A DNA stretch of 44,748 nt from a virus. The position numbers were made by a program, and so were the translations under genes. Positions 4,090 to 37,984 of the stretch are shown here, piece by piece. Every line of letters starts with the position of its first letter. Position 1 is the stretch's first letter. The notes under the pieces were generated by a model. The model had not been told where the DNA came from. It did no database searches and saw nothing but the letters and a program-made list of their open reading frames with translations. The DNA lies in the UHGV virus genome UHGV-0124463; one strand, 5' to 3'.

Positions 4090-7000
4090 ATGGCTCAGTT
4101 TCTGAACCAAGAACCGAATCCACAGGAAAAGGATTCTGCTAAGGGCGCAACACTTAAACCTGCGCCTGAGCGCGTAGATTGGAACGATGCCGGGGACAAC
4201 GGCTTAAATGCACTGGAGCGAGCCTCCTTAATGGCGCAGGCCAAGACCCCAGCTACTACAGCCGGGGAGAGCTTTGCGTCGGGTATGGGCAACAGCATCA
4301 TCGCCGCAGCTATCCGCAAGGCCTCTGCCCCGGCATTTGACCGGGACCAGAACTTTAACGCCAAGCAGACTCTGAGCAGCGACACCCGAGCTAAGCTGTA
4401 TGCTCCAAATCAGGAAGAGATTGAGTACCTGCACGATTCCGTATCGGTCGAGGATTACAACTACCGCATGCAGCAGATGCTTGAGCAACGCGACCGTGAC
4501 CGCTTAATGGCTGACAACACGGTAGCCGGGTTCGCGGGTATGTTGGTGGGTGATTCTCCGTTCATCCTGGCCCCGATGTCTGCCGCTGGTATTGCTGGCC
4601 GCGCAGGCTTAGCTGCACGGACTGCTATCCGCGCTGCTGACGTAGGCTCCGCATTCTATGCGCAGGACCAACTGGGCCAGTCTGCTGCGGTAACTGCACT
4701 GGTAGCGGGCGTAGCTGGGTTGGACCAGCTCTGGGATATGTCTAGGGCTGCTAAAGCTGCTGCTAAGGCTCGTACTGGGCGTGAGCCTATGTTCGACCCA
4801 GAAGCGCCTACAACTCGTACAGCGAGGGACGCTAATGTTACAGGAGTAGGAGAGGGAGAGGAAATCCTTACTAAGACACTGGATGAAAGCATCCAAGTAT
4901 CTAGAAACAATACCGCCTCCGTGAACATGAAAGCACAGCACGTAGTTCAGTTCTTGAAGAAGTCCGAACACTTAACAGCAGGCCAGAAGGCTATTCTGGA
5001 CACGCTGGGCGATGCTGTAAATGACATTGATTTTAAACTGGTAGCAGGCTCCGCAAACCGCAGCCGCTACACTTACGCACAGCAAGATTTAGCTAAGCGT
5101 GGAGAGGTGTCTCTACGCGCACCTAAGCGAGCTAATGGCAGCACATGGACTACAGCAGGGGACGCACTGCGTGCTATGGATGCAGACACAAGCAGGGTAG
5201 CCGTGCACGAACTGATTCATGCCGCCACTGCGCGCGCCGTTGACAGTAACCCAGAGATTGCTAAGCGCCTGGATGAAGTGCGCGCTGTTATTGCAGCGGA
5301 CTCCACCTTGACGCCGCGTATGCGGTATTACGCTAGTAATGTGCACGAGATGCTGGCAGGCTTAGGTGACAGCCCTGAGTGGGTTGAGCATCTGGCGCGG
5401 ACGAAATCCCCAACCGGTAAGAGCATGCTCCGCCAACTGGGCGAGTACATCATGAATGCCCTGGGCATCAAGGCCAAAGGTTCTGCCTTGGAAGATGTCT
5501 TGGATGCGTACGAGGACGCCGTTAAGTGGACAGCTAAGGATTATGCAGACCAAGCCCAGAGCTTCCGTAGTGAAGCCTTCCAGGACCTGGCGGGCAGCAC
5601 TACCCTAAACGAGGCTAAGGGTGCCCAAGCTATGCTGGATGGCGCTAAGAAGAAGCTCTCTACTATGTTTGCCCTGTACGATAACATCGCTCAAGGCAAT
5701 GAAGACTTGGCTAAACTGCTAGTGTCGGATGCGTCCGCAGTAGGCGGCCGTCGCCCGTCTGTAGTGGACTTCAAGCGCAACCTCACTTTGGAGATGGACG
5801 CCAGCGCTAGCGTAGTGGAAGACGCTATCCTGGGCGCGTTGAAGGATAAGGGTGTAGGTTTCTCTGAGCGCTTCTTCCATCGTAGTAAGTTCCGCGCTGA
5901 GCGGGCTGCGCTGGAGGACCGCCTGAGCAAGTACCTGGATGCTGCCTATAGCGCTGACGTAAACGGTAGAGCTGTTCCTGTGCCGGATGCAGAGATTGCC
6001 ACACTGGTTGACGCCTACCGCCGCTCTGGCTGGGCTAGCAAGTGGCACGAGCATATGCTCAATGCCGGGCTAGTGGATGATGGTGCGTTGGTTAAATCCG
6101 ACTACTACTTCCCGCGTCAGTACAGCTACGACAAGATGCGTCAAGGTATCGCACAGGGTAACACTCTGGACGACTACCGCGCCCTGTTCCGGTCCGCCTT
6201 GCGGGACGTTTACCCGAGCATGGAGTCAGAGGTAGTGCAGCGTGTTGCCAAGGAGATGGTTGACGGCATCTACAATGGCCGTGCCGGACAGTCCGGCCCT
6301 ATGTGGAAGCAGCTGATTAACGGTATGGGTAACGATGAGGTCGTTATGGCTATGCGTAGCGCCGGTGTAGAGGAGTCTGCAATCCAGAGCTTCCTGGCTG
6401 GCAACGTACGCGAATCCGGCAGCACATCCCCTGCGCGGAACCTGCGTCAGCGTACTCGGTTCAACATGGACAAAGAGTATCTGGTGAACGGTAAGAGCAT
6501 GCGCATGCAGGACCTGATGGATACTGATGTAGCCAAGGTTATGCACGGGTACACTAACCGTATGTCTGGACGTGTAGGCATGGCCTATGCAGGCGTACAG
6601 GACCTGGGACAGCTCGCTAAGATGATTGATGAGTCCAAGCACGCACTGGCGGATTCCGCTAAGTGGGAGAAGACAATCAATGACACCATCGACTTTATCC
6701 TGGGTGGGGCTCCTGCTGACGCAGGGCAGCTTCCGGATTTGCTACGCGCAGCCGGGAACATGGCTAACGCCACCATGCTTAAGAACTCCGGGCTGTATCA
6801 GCTGACGGATACTGCGCTGGCTATGAAGGAGTTCGGCATGGCTAGAGTGCTGCGCAGTATGCGTGACCAGCCTTGGTTCAAGGAAGGTGCCGTAGCTATC
6901 AAGACTCCGGATATGGCTGCCCGTCTAGACACCGTGCTGCGTGGTAATATCCAGAAGGAGATGCGCTTCCGCTGGCTGAATACGTATGCTGACGATAACT

Positions 7001-7788
7001 TGGACCTGACCCGTCAGGCCTCTTGGTTCAACGTCACTCAGAACGTTGGGCAGGCTGCACGTCACGTCAACGGCATGAGTATGGTGCATCGGCTGCAGGT
7101 TAACCTGAACTCCGGTATTGTGGCAGATGAGCTTACGCAGATGTTCAAGGGCGATGCTGAGGCGTTTAAGCGTCTGGAGCGTTTCGGGCTTACCCGAGAC
7201 GTTGCGGACCGAGCTATCGCCGCCAACAAGGCTAACCCGGGAGCTATGTTCCAGCCGGACCTGCAAATGCAAGTTGAGGTTGTGGGGACGCGTATGATGG
7301 ACTACCTGGTACAGCAGGTTCGTACCGGTGAGACTTCACACTTTGCACAGTTCAACCCCATCGGCAAAGTCATTGTAGGGTACCAGAGCTTCGCACTGGC
7401 TGCCACTAACAAGATTCTGCGTAGGGAGCTGAACGATGCTGGGTGGATTGGTGTGGCCCATATTATGGCGTACCAGTTCCCATTGATGCTGCTGGCTACT
7501 ATGGCCAAGCACGGCATGGACGGGAAGGACGTAGACACCCAGAAACTCATCGGCGAGTCCGTGATGGGTATGAGTGCTATTGGCGGTGTATCCTTACTGC
7601 AGGATATCTTCCTGGGGGATTCTCCCCGCCACTCGTTGGCGTCTATGGGTTATGTCACAGGACTACTTGGGGCTGTGCAGGACCTAGCTACCGGTAATAT
7701 GGATATCAAGACCTTCACTAAGCAGGTACCGTTAATCCAGGAATTCGCACCTACGCGAGCTATCATCAATAACTTCGGAGACGATTAA
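4090..7788 (+). CDS. large internal virion/core protein (T7 gp16-like position)
   Basis: 1232 aa ORF with RBS GGAG upstream; position before tail fiber. Confidence 0.55.
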   Translation: MAQFLNQEPNPQEKDSAKGATLKPAPERVDWNDAGDNGLNALERASLMAQAKTPATTAGESFASGMGNSIIAAAIRKASAPAFDRDQNFNAKQTLSSDTRAKLYAPNQEEIEYLHDSVSVEDYNYRMQQMLEQRDRDRLMADNTVAGFAGMLVGDSPFILAPMSAAGIAGRAGLAARTAIRAADVGSAFYAQDQLGQSAAVTALVAGVAGLDQLWDMSRAAKAAAKARTGREPMFDPEAPTTRTARDANVTGVGEGEEILTKTLDESIQVSRNNTASVNMKAQHVVQFLKKSEHLTAGQKAILDTLGDAVNDIDFKLVAGSANRSRYTYAQQDLAKRGEVSLRAPKRANGSTWTTAGDALRAMDADTSRVAVHELIHAATARAVDSNPEIAKRLDEVRAVIAADSTLTPRMRYYASNVHEMLAGLGDSPEWVEHLARTKSPTGKSMLRQLGEYIMNALGIKAKGSALEDVLDAYEDAVKWTAKDYADQAQSFRSEAFQDLAGSTTLNEAKGAQAMLDGAKKKLSTMFALYDNIAQGNEDLAKLLVSDASAVGGRRPSVVDFKRNLTLEMDASASVVEDAILGALKDKGVGFSERFFHRSKFRAERAALEDRLSKYLDAAYSADVNGRAVPVPDAEIATLVDAYRRSGWASKWHEHMLNAGLVDDGALVKSDYYFPRQYSYDKMRQGIAQGNTLDDYRALFRSALRDVYPSMESEVVQRVAKEMVDGIYNGRAGQSGPMWKQLINGMGNDEVVMAMRSAGVEESAIQSFLAGNVRESGSTSPARNLRQRTRFNMDKEYLVNGKSMRMQDLMDTDVAKVMHGYTNRMSGRVGMAYAGVQDLGQLAKMIDESKHALADSAKWEKTINDTIDFILGGAPADAGQLPDLLRAAGNMANATMLKNSGLYQLTDTALAMKEFGMARVLRSMRDQPWFKEGAVAIKTPDMAARLDTVLRGNIQKEMRFRWLNTYADDNLDLTRQASWFNVTQNVGQAARHVNGMSMVHRLQVNLNSGIVADELTQMFKGDAEAFKRLERFGLTRDVADRAIAANKANPGAMFQPDLQMQVEVVGTRMMDYLVQQVRTGETSHFAQFNPIGKVIVGYQSFALAATNKILRRELNDAGWIGVAHIMAYQFPLMLLATMAKHGMDGKDVDTQKLIGESVMGMSAIGGVSLLQDIFLGDSPRHSLASMGYVTGLLGAVQDLATGNMDIKTFTKQVPLIQEFAPTRAIINNFGDD
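4834..4851 (+). promoter_or_regulatory. copy of 17-bp motif ATGTTACAGGAGTAGGA (candidate phage RNAP promoter), located inside the core-protein gene
   Basis: Exact match to the motif copies at 16426..16442 and 37985..38002. Confidence 0.3.
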
Positions 7789-13381: not shown

Positions 13382-15337
13382 ATGGCGTTAATTAGATTAG
13401 TAGCTCCAGAGCGGGTATTCTCCGACTTGGCGAGCATGGTAGCATATCCAAACTTTCAGGTACAGGACAAGATTATCCTGCTGGGCAGCGCCGGTGGGGA
13501 CTTCACCTTTACTACTGCCGCGTCGGTAGTGGATAACGGAACTGTGTTTGCTGTACCTGGTGGGTATCTACTCCGTAAATTCGTGGGTCCGGCATACAGC
13601 TCCTGGTTCAGCAATTGGGCGGGCATAGTAACGTTCATGAGCGCACCTAATAGGCACCTGGTTGTGGACACAGTCCTGCAGGCCACGAGTGTGCTCAACA
13701 TCAAAAGCAACTCTACGCTGGAGTTTACTGATACCGGAAGAATCCTGCCGGATGCCTCGGTTGCACGTCAAGTGCTTAACATTATCGGCTCGGCACCCTC
13801 GGCATTCGTCCCGTTAGCGGCGGATGCCACAGCGGGCAGCAAAGTCATTACGGTGGCTGCCGGGGCTTTGTCTGCGGTAAAAGGTACGTACTTGTATCTT
13901 CGCTCTAACAAGCTGTGTGATGGTGGTCCTAACACCTACGGTGTAAAGATTTCCCAGATTAGGAAAGTGGTGGGGGTTAGCACCTCCGGTGGCGTCACCA
14001 GTATTCGGCTGGATAAAGCGCTGCACTATAACTACTACCTGTCTGATGCCGCGGAAGTAGGTATCCCGACAATGGTGGAGAACGTAACCTTAGTATCCCC
14101 GTACATCAACGAGTTCGGCTACGACGATTTGAACCGGTTCTTTACTATCGGTATCTCTGCCAACTTTGCCGCGGACTTGCACATCCAGGACGGGGTTATT
14201 ATTGGCAACAAACGCCCCGGGGCTTCTGATATAGAAGGGCGTAGTGCTATCAAGTTCAATAACTGCGTAGATAGTACCGTTAAGGGTACGTGCTTCTACA
14301 ACATCGGATGGTACGGGGTAGAGGTGCTCGGCTGCTCAGAGGACACGGAAGTACACGATATCCACGCCATGGACGTACGCCACGCAATCTCTCTGAACTG
14401 GCAGAGCACTGCAGACGGGGACAAGTGGGGAGAGCCTATCGAGTTCTTAGGCGTTAACTGCGAAGCCTACAGCACAACCCATGCCGGGTTTGATACTCAC
14501 GACATTGGTAAGCGTGTGAAGTTCGTTCGCTGCGTTTCATACGACAGTGCTGACGATGGGTTCCAAGCGCGCACTAACGGGGTAGAGTACTTGAACTGTC
14601 GAGCTTACCGCGCAGCATTTGATGGGTTCGCCTCCAACACCGGTGTAGGCTTCCCTATCTATAGAGAGTGCTTAGCTTATGACAACGTACGCTCTGGCTT
14701 TAACTGTTCGTACGGTGGTGGCTACGTTTATGACTGTGAGGCTCACGGTAGCCAGAACGGTGTCCGCACCAACGGAGGTTGTGTTAAAGGCGGTCGGTAC
14801 ACTCGCAACTCCAGCTCTCACATCTTCGTCACTAAGGATGTAGCTGAGACGGCGCAGACGTCCCTGGAGATTGATGGCGTGAGCATGCGCTACGACGGTA
14901 CCGGAAGAGCTGTGTACTTCCACGGGACTATGGGCATTAACCCTACCATGGTATCTATGTCCAATAATGACATGACCGGTCACGGCTTGTCCTGGGCATT
15001 ACTGAGTGGCTACACTGTTCAACCTACGCCTCCGCGCATGTCCAGGAACTTACTGGATGACACAGGTATCCGTGGAGTGGCAACGCTGGTTGCTGGCGAG
15101 GCTACAGTCAACGCCCGTGTACGCGGAAACTTTGGCAGCGTAGCTAACTCCTTCAAGTGGGTGTCTGAGGTTAAGTTGACGCGGTTAACCTTTCCTTCTA
15201 GTGCTGGGGCCTTGACGGTTACTGGCGTAGCACAGAACCAGGATGTACCTACACCTAATCCGGACCTAAACAGCTTCGTGATTAGGAGTAGTAACGCAGC
15301 GGATGTATCCCAGGTAGCCTGGGAGGTGTATCTCTAA
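13382..15337 (+). CDS. tailspike / polysaccharide depolymerase candidate
   Basis: 651 aa, rich in Gly/Asn/Thr/Val with periodic beta-strand-like repeats and scattered Cys; placed after the lysis cassette. Confidence 0.45.
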   Translation: MALIRLVAPERVFSDLASMVAYPNFQVQDKIILLGSAGGDFTFTTAASVVDNGTVFAVPGGYLLRKFVGPAYSSWFSNWAGIVTFMSAPNRHLVVDTVLQATSVLNIKSNSTLEFTDTGRILPDASVARQVLNIIGSAPSAFVPLAADATAGSKVITVAAGALSAVKGTYLYLRSNKLCDGGPNTYGVKISQIRKVVGVSTSGGVTSIRLDKALHYNYYLSDAAEVGIPTMVENVTLVSPYINEFGYDDLNRFFTIGISANFAADLHIQDGVIIGNKRPGASDIEGRSAIKFNNCVDSTVKGTCFYNIGWYGVEVLGCSEDTEVHDIHAMDVRHAISLNWQSTADGDKWGEPIEFLGVNCEAYSTTHAGFDTHDIGKRVKFVRCVSYDSADDGFQARTNGVEYLNCRAYRAAFDGFASNTGVGFPIYRECLAYDNVRSGFNCSYGGGYVYDCEAHGSQNGVRTNGGCVKGGRYTRNSSSHIFVTKDVAETAQTSLEIDGVSMRYDGTGRAVYFHGTMGINPTMVSMSNNDMTGHGLSWALLSGYTVQPTPPRMSRNLLDDTGIRGVATLVAGEATVNARVRGNFGSVANSFKWVSEVKLTRLTFPSSAGALTVTGVAQNQDVPTPNPDLNSFVIRSSNAADVSQVAWEVYL

Positions 15338-15433
15338 GTAGCTCCCTGGGGTATCTCTATGGTATCCCGGGGCACTACTTGGGGTGCACGTCTATACCTG
15401 GACCTGAAATTTATTAGACTTTAAAATGAGGAT

Positions 15434-15895: not shown

Positions 15896-16425
15896 AACCA
15901 AAAATTATTATACTCGCCCTTGGGCCTCCCTCACCCTCAGCGCGAGCAATTGCCCCCATAGGGGGTGCCTAGCGCATAAACAGAGGGGGTGGGGCCACCT
16001 AGGGCGCACTAGTAGGCACCAGCGGGCCTCAGCGGGCCTGTGCTGCGTTCTAGTGCTATCGCTAGTGCTACCCTATGGCTATCCCTGTGCGTTCACTAGG
16101 GCGCTTCCTGTGCGCTCTCTGTGGGCCATAGGGGTGCGCTCTGCCTTACCTATTTTGTGCGCCTCAGTGTGGCACCTAGGGGCGTGTCCATTGCTTATTT
16201 TGCGCGTCCATAGTGGGCCCGCCTAGTGCGCTGTAGTGCGTCACGGTGCTATCCCTAGTATGCACTAGGCGATCCACTGGCTATCCCTAGTGCTTTACAT
16301 TGTGCCGATTATATGCTACGCTGCGCGCTCCCCCCTAGGGCGCACATCCTCACCCAACACTATCCCGGCGCTATCTCTTTGCTATCCTTTTGCTCTTACT
16401 TTCATTCGAAAGCTGTCATGAAATG
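15896..16425. repeat. repeat-rich non-coding region (short direct repeats and recurring 10-mer CTAGGGCGCA); probable genome-terminus region
   Basis: No credible ORF; CTAGGGCGCA at 15999 and 16335 (9/10 at 16096; also 17330), tandem cagcgggcct x2, repeated ctagtgcta and ctatccct. Confidence 0.5.
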
Positions 16426-17848: not shown

Positions 17849-17919
17849 TTACAGCCTATAGCATCCTACGGGGTGCTATGTGAAGTAATTACCTAAACAA
17901 CCAATCAAAGAGGTGCATT

Positions 17920-25436: not shown

Positions 25437-25882
25437 CAGGTTGTATTGACCACGGACAGAAGGGAAGCACTTGCCGAGGAAAGGGCGCTGGGTATGGCCG
25501 CTCCAGATTTGACGGGAAGACAACTGGCAGCCACCGCAAAGCATACTGTGTAGCTCACAACTTGAAGCTGAGCGATATCGCGGGACTTGTAGTCCGGCAT
25601 TCGTGCGACAATCCTCGGTGCATAAATCCGGAGCACCTGCTACTAGGGACTTCTAGCGATAATATGCAGGACCGAAATAAAGGTGCGCGTAATTTGCTGG
25701 GCAGCCGCAACCCTGCTGCCAGACTTACCCCAGAAGACGTGCACAGCATACGAGAAGCATACGCTGGCGGTGAGACCCAGGTATCTATAGCGAGACGCTT
25801 CGGGACAAGTCAAGGATACATATCTAATATCATAAAGGGGAGGGTATGGAATGAGCAGAAGCATCCTGATAACGGATTATGA
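25433..25882 (+). CDS. HNH homing endonuclease (paralog 2 of 3)
   Basis: Motif LVVRHSCDNPRCINPEHLLLGTSSDNMQD; track ORF 25427..25882, ATG at 25433 after GGAGGG. Confidence 0.7.
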   Translation: MTGCIDHGQKGSTCRGKGAGYGRSRFDGKTTGSHRKAYCVAHNLKLSDIAGLVVRHSCDNPRCINPEHLLLGTSSDNMQDRNKGARNLLGSRNPAARLTPEDVHSIREAYAGGETQVSIARRFGTSQGYISNIIKGRVWNEQKHPDNGL

Positions 25883-28229
25883 GACGCAAAACCACCCATA
25901 TTACGGTAGTGTTGCTTCCCCGTACTGTCCGGATAATTACATCGTAGAATCAGCGTGGCGTATTGACCGCACGCACGATGACGGTACGGTAGAAGTAGGC
26001 CCCGTAGAGAGTGTACGGTATAACAGTCGCGCGCACTTTGAAGCGGCACCTGTATCAGAATGGCTCCCAATACCAGCTGACTGTTGGCTGATTGTGGCTC
26101 ACAACGCCGCATATGAGATTAGCTGGTTCCTAACCTTTGCGCGCGCCGAGTTTGAGGCCTTCCTAAAGCGGGGAGGTCGCGTATTCTGTACGATGCATTC
26201 TGAGTACATCGCCTCGGACTTTCAGAGCATGTATCCGTCGCTGGACGAGACGGCTCCTAAGTACGGTGGTACGCACAAAGTAGACGGGGTTAAGATTCTA
26301 TGGGAGCAGGGTGTGTTAACCTCCCAGATTGACCCGATGCTGCTGCATGACTACCTGGTTAACGGGGACATCCCGAACACGGCTCTGTGCTTCTACGGTC
26401 AGTGCGCTACGTTCGCCCAGCGCAATCAGATGCAGTACGTGTGGGAGCGCATGGATGCTCTGCTAGCCTGGGCGTACTGCGAATGGTTCGGCCTGTTCGT
26501 TAATATGCCAATTGCGCGCAAGAACCAAGAGGAGCAGGAGCAGCGCATCCGCGAGATTAAGCAGGAGCTGCAGCAGTACATCCCTAAGGACTTGCCGGAG
26601 GCACTGGATTTCAACTTCGGTTCGGACTTTCATATGTCTGCACTGGTGTACGGTGGGCCTATCAAGTACCGCAAGAAGGTGCCCTATGACCCTCCTCAGT
26701 ACGTCAAGTACGATGCCTACTTAGCAGACGTCAATGGAACGTTGCAGTATATTGATGTGTCCGACTGGCAGCCAGAATGGACGTACCCGCGGACACTGTA
26801 TAAGTCCGGCAAGAACAAGGGGCTTCCCAAAGTGTTCCGCCTTGATACCGAGGAGGAGAAACTTAAGTGGGAGGATGACCTTTACTTCTGCCCGGGCCTA
26901 GTGAACATCCAGGAGCTGCCGGAAGTTATCCGGGAGAAGTACACAGAGCGCGGAGAGTTCCGGCAGGCGCGGAACCTGCAGGATGACACTCCTGTGTATA
27001 GTACCAGCACTGACGCAATGGAGGCACTGGCTCGCCAAGGTTTCGAGTTCTGTAAGTTGGTGAACGAGCTGGCGGCGCTGGAGAAGGACACTGGAACTTA
27101 CTACTTGCGTGAAGTTCTGGACGCAGAGGGTAAAGTCAAAGAGCGGAAGGGCATGTTACAGTACGTAATCCCTGAGCGTCCTGATGGTTCTGGCATCATA
27201 CACCACCGACTGAATACCTGCGCCACCGTAACCGGGCGCTTGAGTAGCTCTAACCCGAACCTGCAGAACCTACCCCGCCCGGATGAGGATGGGGATGGGG
27301 TAGCTAAATCCAAGGTGAAGCAGGTATTCACCAGCCGATTCGGGGATAACGGACGCATCACTGAGGTTGACTACTCGGCGCTGGAAGTGGTTATGTCCTG
27401 CGTGCATACGGGGGACACCAAACTACTGGGGCTGCTGCAGGGCGGCACGGATATGCACTGTTACCGCCTAGCTTTCCGCGAGGAACTGCCGTATGAAGAA
27501 GTGTATGAGCGCTGCCACAACAAGAAGCACGAGCTGCATCCGCTTTGGAAGGCAATGCGTACAGGTATTAAGGCTCCTAGCTTCGCAGCCCAGTATGGCG
27601 CTACGGCTAAGGGGATTGCGTTTGCTACTGGATGTACGGTGGAATTCGCACAGGCTTTCTTGGACAACGAGGCTGCGCTGTTCCCGCAAACAATTGGCTT
27701 CCGCGCTGTTATCAAGGAAGAAGTAGAGCGCACCGGGGCAGCCGGGCGCATGTACCGCGAGCAGGCTGACGATGGCAGCTACCGAGTCTACCGCATCGGG
27801 ACGTGGACTAGCCCAGCAGGTGCCCGCTATAGCTTCCGCCAGAAGGAGCAGTGGAAAGAGGTTGTGCCTGGGCAGCGTAAGCAGAAGGTAATGGACTACA
27901 AGGAAACAGAGATGGCTAACTACTGGTGCCAGGGGGAAGCATTCTTCCTGATGGCGGTAGCCGCCGGTATGGTTCTGCGTGCACTCCTGGCCCGTGACTG
28001 GTTCGACAATCAGGTGTGCCTGATTACGAACGTGCACGATGCGTTGTATCTGGACAGCGCCAACCCGGAGGTTGGACGTGAGGCGAGCCTGCTGGTTAAG
28101 CAGTGCATGGAGGATGCACCTAAGCGTATTCACCAGCTCTGGCCTAACTACGGCATCATTGGTGAGGTCCCGTTCCCGGCGGAATGTGAGATGGGGGTAA
28201 GCATGTATGCCAAAGAGAAAATTGAGTGA
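25851..28229 (+). CDS. DNA polymerase, family A, with 3'-5' exonuclease domain
   Basis: Exo motif ITDYET; pol motifs DYSALEVV, RTGIKAPSFAAQYG, NVHDALYLD; 792 aa. Confidence 0.85.
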   Translation: MSRSILITDYETQNHPYYGSVASPYCPDNYIVESAWRIDRTHDDGTVEVGPVESVRYNSRAHFEAAPVSEWLPIPADCWLIVAHNAAYEISWFLTFARAEFEAFLKRGGRVFCTMHSEYIASDFQSMYPSLDETAPKYGGTHKVDGVKILWEQGVLTSQIDPMLLHDYLVNGDIPNTALCFYGQCATFAQRNQMQYVWERMDALLAWAYCEWFGLFVNMPIARKNQEEQEQRIREIKQELQQYIPKDLPEALDFNFGSDFHMSALVYGGPIKYRKKVPYDPPQYVKYDAYLADVNGTLQYIDVSDWQPEWTYPRTLYKSGKNKGLPKVFRLDTEEEKLKWEDDLYFCPGLVNIQELPEVIREKYTERGEFRQARNLQDDTPVYSTSTDAMEALARQGFEFCKLVNELAALEKDTGTYYLREVLDAEGKVKERKGMLQYVIPERPDGSGIIHHRLNTCATVTGRLSSSNPNLQNLPRPDEDGDGVAKSKVKQVFTSRFGDNGRITEVDYSALEVVMSCVHTGDTKLLGLLQGGTDMHCYRLAFREELPYEEVYERCHNKKHELHPLWKAMRTGIKAPSFAAQYGATAKGIAFATGCTVEFAQAFLDNEAALFPQTIGFRAVIKEEVERTGAAGRMYREQADDGSYRVYRIGTWTSPAGARYSFRQKEQWKEVVPGQRKQKVMDYKETEMANYWCQGEAFFLMAVAAGMVLRALLARDWFDNQVCLITNVHDALYLDSANPEVGREASLLVKQCMEDAPKRIHQLWPNYGIIGEVPFPAECEMGVSMYAKEKIE

Positions 28230-28686
28230 GTGTATTAATCATCCCGGAGGTATGTTCCCTTCTGGGTACGGTGCTAAATGGTGGCTAGGAGCCACCAGAA
28301 AGGCCCACCGGGTGGCGTATTGCCAGGCGCACGGTCTGCTGCCGGAGGATATAGAGGGTATCATAATCCGACACAAGTGCGACAATAGGGCATGCGTAAA
28401 CCCAGACCACCTGGAGCCGGGAAGCCATGCCGACAATATGCGGGACATGGTTGAGCGAGGACGCTCGGCGATGGGCGTTCGTAACAGCAAGGCCAAACTA
28501 ACGCCTGAGCAAGTAGCCGAAATACGCCGAACGTTTGTACCCCAATCCACGGAGTACGGCTCAGTGGCTCTAGGCCGGTTGTATGGGGTGAGTAACAGCA
28601 CAATCAACCGCATAGTGCGTGGACTCTATTGGGTAGCAGAGGCTGAGATGGGTACGAGTATGTACAGTAAGGAGAAGGTAGAATGA
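28207..28686 (+). CDS. HNH homing endonuclease (paralog 3 of 3), ending in a polymerase-tail-like peptide
   Basis: Motif IIIRHKCDNRACVNPDHLEPGSHADNMRD; last 16 aa AEAEMGTSMYSKEKVE mirror the polymerase C-terminus AECEMGVSMYAKEKIE. Confidence 0.7.
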   Translation: MPKRKLSECINHPGGMFPSGYGAKWWLGATRKAHRVAYCQAHGLLPEDIEGIIIRHKCDNRACVNPDHLEPGSHADNMRDMVERGRSAMGVRNSKAKLTPEQVAEIRRTFVPQSTEYGSVALGRLYGVSNSTINRIVRGLYWVAEAEMGTSMYSKEKVE

Positions 28687-28904
28687 GTATAAAGTCTGGC
28701 AGTGTTGTGGAGTTGATGGACCTGGGGCCTGAGCCGATAGACCCGCGGTATGCAGCATACTTCACCCCGGGTACGAGGCACACGGTTATGTTCTTCGACC
28801 CGGTTACTGGGGAGATAGAACTAAGTTATCCTGGACTAGTAGTAAGTAGACCGGGGGATGGTGTTACCTTCTTCCCGGGGGAGTACAAGCTTATCGTGGA
28901 ATAG
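28683..28904 (+). CDS. hypothetical protein
   Basis: 73-aa ORF with strong RBS AAGGAGAAGG. Confidence 0.4.
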   Translation: MSIKSGSVVELMDLGPEPIDPRYAAYFTPGTRHTVMFFDPVTGEIELSYPGLVVSRPGDGVTFFPGEYKLIVE

Positions 28905-28961
28905 TGATAGGTGGACCCTTGGGTGGTGTAGGGGGTTAGGGTAGCATGGAAATACACTAGG

Positions 28962-28996
28962 GTCAACTAAATAATTAAATAAAATTATTTGTTGAC
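28962..28996. promoter_or_regulatory. AT-rich imperfect palindrome (GTCAAC-T-AAATAATT-aaataa-AATTATTT-GTTGAC); candidate operator or origin element
   Basis: Inverted repeat read directly; lies in a ~160-bp non-coding AT-rich gap. Confidence 0.35.
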
Positions 28997-29065
28997 TCTG
29001 GCTTGATTCTGTGATTCCCAGCAAATTAATGTGATACGAGTAGGAACAACACAAGAGAGGCAACC

Positions 29066-30109
29066 TTGGCCAAAGTAAGTCTAATAAAACTATTCACCAA
29101 AGAGCAGCACCAGGCAATCCTGGGCCAGTACTTGGATAACTCGACGGCTGCTAAAGCATATAACGTACTACTGGCTTACGGGGAGATACCGCAGTACAAG
29201 GAGAGTGCAGAATACTATGGCACCCTTGGTACCGCAGAGTGCGTGGTGTCTCGCCAGCTTGTACGCTACTGGCGCAGCATCTTCATGGATAACAAGGGCA
29301 GCAAGGCCAGCGCCAACCGCGGGCTGCAGGAAGCGCGCAAGCTAATCCAACCGAGCCCGACGGACGACATCGGGAATACACTGGTGCCGGATATGTGTCA
29401 CCGCATCCTGGTGGTTGGGGACTTGCACGCCCCATATACCCATGTAGACGCTATGCCGTTCCTTGAGAGTGTACGTGACGCCTACTGCCCGGACATGGTG
29501 GTGCAGGTAGGTGACGAAACCGACGGACACGCAATCAGCTTCCATGACTCTGACCCGAACCTAGATAGCGCCGGGGTGGAGCTGGAGAAAGCCAAGCTCG
29601 TACTGGAGGAGCTGCATGAACTATTCCCGAACCTACTGGTTTGCGATTCCAATCACGGCAGTCTGGTTTACCGCAGGGCGAAAGCTCACGGGCTACCAGT
29701 GCAATTCATCAAGAAGTACCGAGATATACTTTTCCCTGAGCATGGTGCCCCGGCGTGGTCTTGGGCTGACGCATGGGTACTCAATACCCCACTTGGCCAG
29801 GTTAGATTCCAGCATCAAGTGTCGGGCGATTTCATGCTCAATGCCAGCCACGAAAGAACCAGCCTTGTACTTGGCCACGAACATGGCCGCTTTGAGGTGC
29901 AATATGCAGCTAGCTCAACAGCTCTGTACTTTGGTGCGTACGCTGGGTGTCTGATTGACCGCAAGAGCATGGCCTTTGCTTACGGCAGGCTCACTCGCAA
30001 GAAACCAATCCTGGGTGTGATGGTAATCACCGAGGGTTGCCCGCAGTTAATTCCAATGCTGCTTGATGATTCCGGAAGGTGGTGTGCAAGAGATAAAACC
30101 AAAGACTGA
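29066..30109 (+). CDS. calcineurin-like metallophosphoesterase (phosphatase or Mre11/SbcD-like nuclease fold)
   Basis: Motifs VVGDLHAPY, VQVGDETDGH, CDSNHGS, LGHEHG in canonical order; TTG start after RBS AGAGAGG. Confidence 0.55.
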   Translation: MAKVSLIKLFTKEQHQAILGQYLDNSTAAKAYNVLLAYGEIPQYKESAEYYGTLGTAECVVSRQLVRYWRSIFMDNKGSKASANRGLQEARKLIQPSPTDDIGNTLVPDMCHRILVVGDLHAPYTHVDAMPFLESVRDAYCPDMVVQVGDETDGHAISFHDSDPNLDSAGVELEKAKLVLEELHELFPNLLVCDSNHGSLVYRRAKAHGLPVQFIKKYRDILFPEHGAPAWSWADAWVLNTPLGQVRFQHQVSGDFMLNASHERTSLVLGHEHGRFEVQYAASSTALYFGAYAGCLIDRKSMAFAYGRLTRKKPILGVMVITEGCPQLIPMLLDDSGRWCARDKTKD

Positions 30110-30131
30110 TACAGGAAAGAGATTCCGCGGT

Positions 30132-30635
30132 ATGGTTGTTTATACCTGGGACTGCCCTTACTGTGGCGAGGAGTTTGAGGCGATACGCACTAAGCTATTC
30201 AATACCAGTAAGCGCGGCGGCCTTGGTCACTGCGGATGTCAAACTAAACTCAGGCAAAGTGAGAAGAATACTGGACGAACTCCGCCTAATAAGCTGGACG
30301 ACTTAACAGTATCGGCGAATAAGGTATGGGCCTTTAGCACTAAGTTAGGTAGGAGTATTACTAAGGAAGACGCCAAGGCCTTAGTAAGCGCAGATTGTTA
30401 TTACTGCGGCGCGCCACCCAGTACCTACCGGGAACTCGGCAGTGGGAGATGGGCGCGTAAATCCACGGTACCCACTAACGGGATAGACCGGAAGGATTCA
30501 CGCATTGGGTACCATTTAGACAACTGTGTGCCATGCTGCCCTACCTGCAACTATATGAAGTCTGACATGCACCACGATGACTTCGTAGGACTGTGCAAAC
30601 GCATAGCCCTGCATCTGCACGTAAATATCATTTAA
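30132..30635 (+). CDS. zinc-ribbon protein with HNH-like nuclease motif
   Basis: CPYCGEEF...HCGC and NGIDRKDSRIGYHLDNCVPCCPTCNYMKSD; track ORF starts at 30063 and overlaps upstream gene, ATG 30132 has RBS AGGAAAGAG. Confidence 0.5.
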   Translation: MVVYTWDCPYCGEEFEAIRTKLFNTSKRGGLGHCGCQTKLRQSEKNTGRTPPNKLDDLTVSANKVWAFSTKLGRSITKEDAKALVSADCYYCGAPPSTYRELGSGRWARKSTVPTNGIDRKDSRIGYHLDNCVPCCPTCNYMKSDMHHDDFVGLCKRIALHLHVNII

Positions 30636-37976: not shown

Positions 37977-37984
37977 AAAATTTA

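Follow-up and report, generated by a model that had tools for sequence, protein, structure and literature searches.

The virus genome UHGV-0124463 (44,748 nucleotides, analysed at its full length and called the window below) carries at 28962-28996 an imperfect palindrome that a first-pass annotation had recorded as a possible operator, replication-origin element or nuclease recognition site. Our analysis indicates that this palindrome is likely, short of proof, to belong to a longer hairpin formed in sense-strand RNA, and that a probable phage RNA polymerase (RNAP) promoter lies 13 nt downstream of that hairpin. The element is consistent with a regulatory module of known type in which a hairpin of intercistronic RNA is combined with a phage promoter; it is conserved yet dispensable, and apparently undescribed for the genus Drulisvirus. 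Its parts are as follows.

28962..28996, no strand assigned: the reported 14-bp palindrome, apex of the hairpin
28945..29013, + strand: extended imperfect hairpin of sense-strand RNA, ~69 nt, predicted from folds, from pairing in alignment A1 (described below) and from left-arm shuffles
28968..28990, no strand assigned: pure A/T run of 23 nt, the longest in the window (next longest, 13 nt)
28992..29017, + strand: TTGACT-N14-TGATTC block, here the 3′ arm of the hairpin, its position conserved across Slopekvirinae genera in a cross-genus alignment
29027..29045, + strand: probable KP34-type phage RNAP promoter TAATGTGATACGAGTA (13/16 match), predicted GGA start at 29043
28947..28989, no strand assigned: segment replaced in some relatives by a ~376-nt HNH endonuclease gene cassette (BLAST junctions; Pfam HNH_3, 1.2e-20; phage KMI3)

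The palindrome and its outward extension

The palindrome is as originally described, with 14 Watson-Crick pairs, one bulged T and a 6-nt loop. Reading along the strand, GTCAAC (28962-28967), the bulged T (28968) and AAATAATT (28969-28976) form the left side, AAATAA (28977-28982) the loop, and AATTATTT (28983-28990) and GTTGAC (28991-28996) the right side. A scan of the 44.7-kb window for Watson-Crick hairpins, permitting one 1-nt bulge and loops of 3-8 nt, returned it as the longest, and a length of 14 bp was reached in 1 of 30 dinucleotide shuffles of the window. Two other surveys are blind to it: a listing of ungapped repeats omits the palindrome because the bulge splits its arms, and the ranking of 80-nt windows by minimum free energy is driven by GC content and is uninformative for an A/T-rich hairpin. 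Folded as a 61-nt RNA the palindrome has a predicted energy of -20.2 kcal/mol (z = -7.7), equalled by 0 of 200 shuffles, and the hairpin formed in DNA is weak (-10 to -11 kcal/mol). The palindrome has zero exact matches in 185,579 genomes of bacteria and archaea, indicating that it was not copied from a host element. Searches of Rfam with the whole window (gathering threshold) and with 28700-29200 (E-value threshold) returned only sub-threshold miRNA-precursor models, which signify merely a long hairpin.

The first-pass annotation missed the pairing that continues outward from this core, where the use of G·U pairs carries the stem to 28945-29013. From the base upward, the predicted hairpin consists of a 7-bp lower stem, a zone of internal loop and bulge, an 11-bp stem, the bulged U, an 8-bp A-U stem and the 6-nt loop; five pairs of the 11-bp stem are outward extension, and three of these are G·U. 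In folds of single sequences, CAUGGAA.UA..CUAGGGUCAAC pairs with GUUGACUCUGG..UG.UUCUGUG, several of the pairs being G·U. The fold is better on the sense strand: an 81-nt segment gave -26.4 kcal/mol (z = -5.5) for the + strand versus -19.5 kcal/mol (z = -3.7) for the - strand, whose centroid structure retains the core alone.

Conservation and RNA-type pairing in Drulisvirus

A megablast search with 28000-30200 matched 262 phage records, of which nearly all are from Klebsiella podophages classed in Drulisvirus, and the window itself belongs to this genus (KP34-like; Autographiviridae, Slopekvirinae). Conservation in related genomes, put forward earlier as a check on the palindrome, was found: the intergenic gap that holds it matches 245 phage records at 85-97% identity. 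Conservation this high suggests function, or at least constraint. From IMG/VR loci located via the phosphoesterase protein and metagenome contigs located via the downstream box, 57 distinct versions were aligned (alignment A1). Near-invariant in A1 are the core palindrome, its 3′ flank CTCTGGCTTGATTCTGTGATT and the box TTAATGTGATACGAGTAGGAACAA; invariance of the box is partly ascertainment in the metagenome set, where the box served as query, and the protein-anchored set is likewise invariant. The 17 nt on the 5′ side of the palindrome vary freely.

Pairing across A1 was assessed with a 31-pair ungapped structure, derived from the tested sequences themselves, which are moreover related. With this structure 89% of the alignment cells are paired, and sliding the 3′ partner by 1-3 columns lowers the figure to 32-48%. 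Changes on both sides of a pair account for 12 cells in 4 pairs, versus 3.0±1.5 in shuffles (a count reached by 0/500), and include A-U/G-U to C-G and G-C to A-U, in the lineages L049, L105, L108 and L118. Ten A1 pairs vary solely as A-U/G-U or U-G/C-G. The wobble pairs are asymmetric between strands, with G·U in 276 cells versus 41 for A·C, which are the wobble pairs of the opposite strand. Within the core, all of the recurrent changes (A45G; C42G with T43C; A42 with T43·G67; A60G) preserve pairing in + strand RNA, and C42G/T43C shifts the position of the bulge.

The outer stem was probed separately by shuffling its left arm in 43 haplotypes. On the + strand z was below 0 in every haplotype (mean -2.2, with 53% below -2), and the same shuffles gave a mean z of -0.5 on the - strand. 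RNAalifold run on A1 proposed a second hairpin (29003-29018 with 29024-29041), which has zero covariation and was rejected here.

A phage promoter-like box downstream of the hairpin

The strong promoter of KP34 RNAP, T(A/G)ATGTTACAGGAGTA, has been defined by 5′-RACE (rapid amplification of cDNA ends) and in vitro transcription (Lu et al. 2019, PMC6834552). It occurs in the window at 4833, at 37983 (just after the RNAP gene) and, in its TGATG form, at 16424; this spacing is like that of KP34, indicating that the window is a circularly permuted whole genome with its left end near 16 kb. The box at 29027-29042, also missed by the first-pass annotation, agrees with the promoter at 13/16 positions and is followed by the GGA start common to all three strong copies. 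Allowing up to 3 mismatches, 5 promoter matches were found in the window versus 0.36 expected by chance. The box of one relative reads TGATGTG..., and A/G variation is tolerated in genuine promoters. The three mismatches lie at -10, -8 and -6.

Other genera give the decisive support. In the Enterobacter phage phiKDA1 (Koutsourovirus), TAGA-N5-CACG[AT]ATAG[AG]A occurs exactly three times, always on the + strand: two sites are intergenic after the RNAP gene and the third lies in the homologous gap between the DNA polymerase and phosphoesterase genes. In the Escherichia phage PAS7, the box in the gap (GTATCACTATAAGATA) and the post-RNAP sequence (GTATGACTATAAGATA) agree at 15/16 positions. Phage-specific promoters have been mapped in the post-RNAP region of KP34 (PMC6834552) and LUZ19 (PMC10914365). 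The match of the phiKDA1 and PAS7 boxes to their own post-RNAP motifs indicates that the box tracks the polymerase specificity of each genus. The box in the window, intergenic and on the + strand, is best read as a candidate middle promoter of the phage, with a short leader of 22 nt running to the Shine-Dalgarno sequence and start codon (AGAGAGG-N5-TTG). The box is absent from the four promoters reported for KP34 and is apparently newly listed here.

One further 3-mismatch copy of the KP34 promoter, TTATGTCACAGGACTA at 7650-7665, also resembles the LUZ19 promoter motif GgtTATGTCACacACA. It sits inside the end of a 1232-aa open reading frame (ORF), is followed by CTT instead of GG, and is probably not an efficient promoter.

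A conserved TTGAC block across genera

The right arm of the hairpin contains a motif that reaches beyond Drulisvirus. Across the genera compared, the invariants are TTGAC[AT], TGA[AT][AT]C 14 nt later, and the promoter box with its start ~51 nt from TTGAC; TTGAC[AT]-N14-TGA[AT][AT]C occurs once in the window. Homologues of the block were identified in L122 (11605-11630), L124, L063, L069 and L029, usually with an A/T tract preceding it. Both the TTGAC motif and the promoter box are retained in other genera, which have no palindrome, and one such palindrome-less sequence, L063, shares the 12-mer AATAATTAAATAAA with the window.

In phiKDA1, PAS7, L063 and L069, the sequence that follows TTGAC finds its complement downstream, and the resulting hairpin of 9-12 bp (z = -4.5 to -5.5) directly adjoins the promoter. 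The Drulisvirus counterpart of this block has its pairing partner upstream, in an insert of ~85 nt specific to the genus. A hairpin ahead of the promoter therefore appears to be maintained with different partners, downstream in the other genera and upstream in Drulisvirus.

Known site layouts were compared by eye with TTGAC…TGTGATTC. None of the CRP, IHF, sigma-32, sigma-E, sigma-54 or T4 MotA-box layouts fits across genera, and neither does the phiKMV nick consensus (CGAC-N5-CCTACTCCGG) or the KP34 'weak' promoter. The hairpin loops of other genera contain a 5-aa mini-ORF (ATGAAAC…TAG), which was put down to coincidence, as it is without a Shine-Dalgarno sequence and is not conserved in Drulisvirus.

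Natural replacement of the left arm by an HNH gene

In six metagenomic or viral contigs (L011, L030, L042, L058, L085 and L101) and in the isolated phage KMI3, an HNH_3 gene replaces 28947-28989, which removes the left arm together with the loop and the right arm's A/T half. The TGA stop of the inserted gene falls in GTTGAC, and everything from TTGAC onward is kept. In the BLAST search, IME308 likewise gave a two-piece match across an annotated HNH gene, suggesting a similar replacement. The HNH-insert alleles carry no significant replacement hairpin (z = -0.24).

Isolated phages without the palindrome indicate that it is not essential for plaque formation, which makes either a unique origin or an indispensable operator less likely. 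In KMI3 (L126, 745-760), the right-arm segment that faces the lost left arm has drifted from CTCTGGC to CTTAGAC, with TTGAC and CTTGATTCTGTGATTC unchanged. This drift may reflect a relaxed pairing constraint, although as a single case it is only suggestive.

The surrounding stretch of ~1 kb is a hotspot for mobile endonuclease genes, with an HNH ORF at 28207-28686, the HNH insertions at 28947-28989 and, in other relatives, extra genes after the box. In L029 (about 1406-1503), a small hydrophobic ORF (…MALLTYA*) crosses TTGACA and stops in GCTTGA. Inserted genes repeatedly terminate within the TTGAC block, as seen for both the L029 ORF and the HNH ORF.

A possible RNA-processing element ahead of a middle promoter

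What might such a hairpin do? Our working proposal, held with slightly less than even confidence, is that it serves as an intercistronic element for RNA processing or 3′-end protection, of the type of the T7 RNase III sites, placed before a middle promoter. Polycistronic RNA that reads through the 3′ end of the DNA polymerase cluster would fold into the hairpin, with a predicted helix of over two turns that contains both a bulge and an internal loop. Cleavage by host RNase III might follow, or the hairpin may simply block 3′-to-5′ exonucleases. The upstream message would keep a protective 3′ hairpin and be physically uncoupled from the downstream message, while the downstream unit, beginning with the metallophosphoesterase gene, would also be transcribed de novo from the box at 29027-29042, starting at G29043. 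Three steps of this scheme are inferred: upstream transcription continues across the region, a host RNase (RNase III or a different one) acts on the hairpin, and the phage RNAP initiates at the box.

T7 offers the closest parallel. Folding of T7 DNA returned two-stem hairpins directly upstream of the promoters phi1.1B and phi4.7, which are the established RNase III sites R1.1 and R4.7. Like these, the element in the window is an imperfect, two-segment sense-strand hairpin with an internal loop, intercistronic, directly before a phage RNAP promoter candidate and situated in the early/DNA-metabolism region. RNase III substrates, among them R1.1, are described as having about two helical turns with internal loops or bulges and as leaving a protective 3′ hairpin (PMC1540722). 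The hairpin in the window has, as the T7 sites do, a bulged helix of at least about two turns (≥~20 bp): its 19-pair upper helix with one bulge is joined to lower segments of 2 bp and 7 bp, and the bulged U at 28968 and the internal-loop zone (A1 columns 26-30 / 78-82) interrupt it. An upper stem so rich in A-U pairs would hold few RNase III antideterminants. Unlike the T7 sites, the predicted hairpin has no sequence similarity to them, is longer (69 nt) and is without an Rfam family, and its upper stem is pure A-U in place of their GC-rich AAGGUC/GGCCUU.

Several observations weigh against both the RNA hairpin and the role proposed for it. The outer stem is heterogeneous: shuffling the left arm of the window itself gave z = -1.7, with 9/150 shuffles equal, and in a few relatives the outer stem is essentially nil (z about 0). 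The G/U-rich right arm would tolerate much of the observed variation even under neutral transitions, and the A1 columns opposite C (23, 30) are frequently unpaired. The near-invariant core on both arms also fits sequence-specific DNA recognition. Moreover, conservation of the right arm persists in sequences that have lost the left arm, which implies a second role for it beyond the RNA-hairpin model, and the 9-12-bp hairpins of other genera are too short for a canonical RNase III substrate. As for the promoter, positions -10 to -6 determine specificity in T7-type promoters, so with mismatches at -10, -8 and -6 the activity of the candidate box could be weak. The searchable literature holds no transcript-end data for Drulisvirus, and searches on Drulisvirus transcriptomes, RNase III in phiKMV-like phages and Autographiviridae origins returned nothing relevant.

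Alternative explanations

The retention of the right arm raises the question of whether TTGAC is a promoter element in its own right, since TTGAC and the upstream A/T tract look like a -35 box and an UP element. Under this alternative, which we consider unlikely, the A/T tract and TTGACT (28992-28997) would be the remnant or a variant of a host sigma-70 promoter from which the middle genes are transcribed before the phage polymerase builds up, and the palindromic symmetry would be secondary. It would account for the invariant TTGAC[AT] that every genus examined carries about 51 nt before the start of the phage promoter, for the A/T tract ahead of it in most, for the 12-mer shared with the palindrome-less L063 and for the conserved right arm of HNH-insert variants that have no left arm. 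GenBank records of KpV74 and KpV48 place 'promoter' features here, although the two annotations disagree with one another. The combination of an A/T tract immediately before a near-consensus TTGACT, kept across genera, is also like the UP element and -35 box of rrnB P1-type promoters; unlike those, it is without a -10 hexamer at usable spacing, as inspection found TAnnnT absent 16-18 nt past TTGAC in every genus. A consensus scan of 28000-30000 gave only TGGAAA-17-AATAAT, no more frequent than in shuffles, and a host promoter leaves the complementary left arm and the G·U pattern unexplained.

If the RNA hairpin is accepted, its function might instead be to stop transcription or make it pause, terminating or attenuating read-through by host or phage RNAP before the promoter and so insulating the two units. 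Terminator-then-promoter layouts are common and the sense-strand hairpin immediately precedes the promoter; the right arm also holds ATTCTGTG, which loosely and weakly resembles the T7 class II signal ATCTGTT. Drulisvirus has a known terminator past the capsid gene, a canonical GC-rich hairpin with a T run (T9-10 tail; PMC4411677). The hairpin studied here is like it in being a sense-RNA hairpin at the end of a gene cluster and unlike it in being A-U-rich without a U tract: the stem is followed by CUUGAUUCUGUGAUUC and the upper stem is all A-U, grounds on which an intrinsic terminator was rejected. A terminator scan of 28000-30000 found zero + strand sites, and host polymerase must reach the downstream genes, including the RNAP gene, early in infection. 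A stop or pause signal is quite unlikely.

A replication-origin element is improbable, although the longest A/T run of the window does adjoin a phage promoter candidate. Here the run would be a DNA-unwinding element activated by transcription from that promoter. At 23 nt of pure A/T it far exceeds any other such run in this genome of 54% GC, only 37 nt separate it from the probable promoter within the replication module, and the AT-centred palindrome could extrude as a cruciform. GGGTC is a preferred T7 primase site, and the copy at 28960-28964 would prime the opposite strand. In T7 the A/T region of the primary origin is downstream of the promoters. The window resembles that origin (phi1.1A/B and the A/T region) in having a promoter and the most A/T-rich segment of the genome within 80 bp of each other in the early/replication region, and differs from it in that the order is reversed, with 28968-28990 upstream of the box at 29027, in that the run is just 23 bp and in that the element is dispensable in natural variants. 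The A/T run and left arm are replaced by the HNH gene in viable isolated phages and are absent from phiKDA1; in addition, the substitutions keep RNA-type rather than DNA pairing, and the hairpin is of low stability as DNA. The searchable literature maps no origin for any phiKMV/KP34-like phage. A more specific version, which we regard as very improbable, would join palindrome, promoter and GGGTC into a transcription-activated KP34-like origin in which the A/T palindrome unwinds or forms a cruciform and the HNH insertions represent homing on an origin hairpin.

Least probable of all is a palindromic protein site in DNA, either an operator for a dimeric phage or host regulator or the target of an HNH homing endonuclease: the GTCAAC/GTTGAC half-sites and the A/T stem are near-invariant on both arms, the region is an HNH gene hotspot and the HNH allele lacks precisely 28947-28989, as expected if insertion immunizes a cleavable site, but the substitutions that recur lack symmetry and are offset only as RNA pairs, both HNH variants and other genera keep TTGAC without the left half-site, no candidate regulator was identified, and free-standing HNH enzymes usually cut near, not at, a palindromic site.

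The DNA-level interpretations of the first-pass annotation are thus at best partly supported. An operator gains from the near-invariance of both arms and loses from their asymmetric changes and the missing left half; an origin element has the A/T run in its favour, and neither the T7 arrangement nor indispensability; and for a nuclease recognition site it is speculation that the intact palindrome, exactly the segment missing from HNH alleles, could be a homing target. Preservation of RNA-only pairing, natural loss in KMI3 and six contigs, and the palindrome-less state of other genera together point away from an essential DNA-level site and are consistent with the sense-strand RNA hairpin as the likely form of the element.

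Implications for Drulisvirus gene expression

Among therapeutic candidates against Klebsiella, Drulisvirus phages are some of the most used, and the KP34 RNAP is under development for RNA synthesis. For KP34-like phages, descriptions so far cover just four promoters and one terminator. If the proposal of a processing hairpin and middle promoter is true, an extra conserved middle promoter drives the genes from the metallophosphoesterase onward and is paired with an RNA-processing or RNA-stability hairpin, which would bring the expression logic of KP34-like phages nearer to the T7 class II scheme than currently drawn. The box is a defined promoter variant of interest for KP34 RNAP, the segment 28947-28989 is a natural dispensable insertion site that could carry cargo in engineered phages, and the analysis marked out the cross-genus motif TTGAC-N14-TGAWWC.

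Genome setting and additional observations

All long ORFs of the window are on the + strand. The genes and remaining features around the element are listed here.

25851..28229, + strand: DNA polymerase gene, upstream transcription unit (ORF list; the homologous ORF is annotated DNA polymerase in relatives)
28207..28686, + strand: free-standing HNH_3 endonuclease ORF, overlapping the end of the DNA polymerase gene (Pfam HNH_3, E = 4.8e-11)
28683..28904, + strand: conserved 73-aa ORF, last gene before the gap (ORF list; KpV74 gp19)
28905..28944, + strand: G-rich, near-invariant, Drulisvirus-specific non-coding tract GGTGGACCCTTGGGTGGTGTAGGGGGTTAGGGTAG (alignment A1)
29017..29023, no strand assigned: hypervariable 6-7-nt spacer between two invariant non-coding blocks (A1 columns 93-100)
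29054..29068, + strand: Shine-Dalgarno sequence AGAGAGG and TTG start of the metallophosphoesterase gene (start kept in relatives)
29066..30109, + strand: metallophosphoesterase gene, first of the downstream unit (ORF list and relatives' annotation; weak Pfam Metallophos match)

The gap between the 73-aa ORF and the TTG start at 29066 spans 28905-29065, and its 161 nt agree with the ~160 bp given earlier. It had also been called the largest gap of the replication module, and this holds in KpV74, where the homologous 161-nt gap tops ~2.4-26.4 kb (next, 142-144 nt). The description of the gap as AT-rich is correct overall (41% GC versus 54% for the genome) but does not apply to its first 41 nt, which are G-rich (58.5% GC); the A/T-richness is concentrated in the 23-nt pure A/T run. 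The G-rich tract at 28905-28944 is retained in HNH-insert variants and is absent from phiKDA1 and PAS7. The spacer at 29017-29023 takes ~20 different versions among the 57 sequences. Among relatives the HNH_3 ORF at 28207..28686 is variable, KpV48 having a homologue and KpV74 none, and a Pfam search with the 73-aa ORF gave zero matches.

Two further hairpins were observed elsewhere in the window. At 17853-17884 there is one copy of a 32-nt motif, a 9-bp hairpin with a UACG loop, that was proposed as a phage promoter by Eriksson et al. 2015 and is unused by KP34 RNAP according to Lu et al. 2019 (PMC6834552); it may be another RNA-level element of the early region. The most stable 80-nt fold of the window, a single long hairpin of -47.6 kcal/mol, lies at 15316-15395, directly after the last long ORF and ahead of the genome end and the early region.

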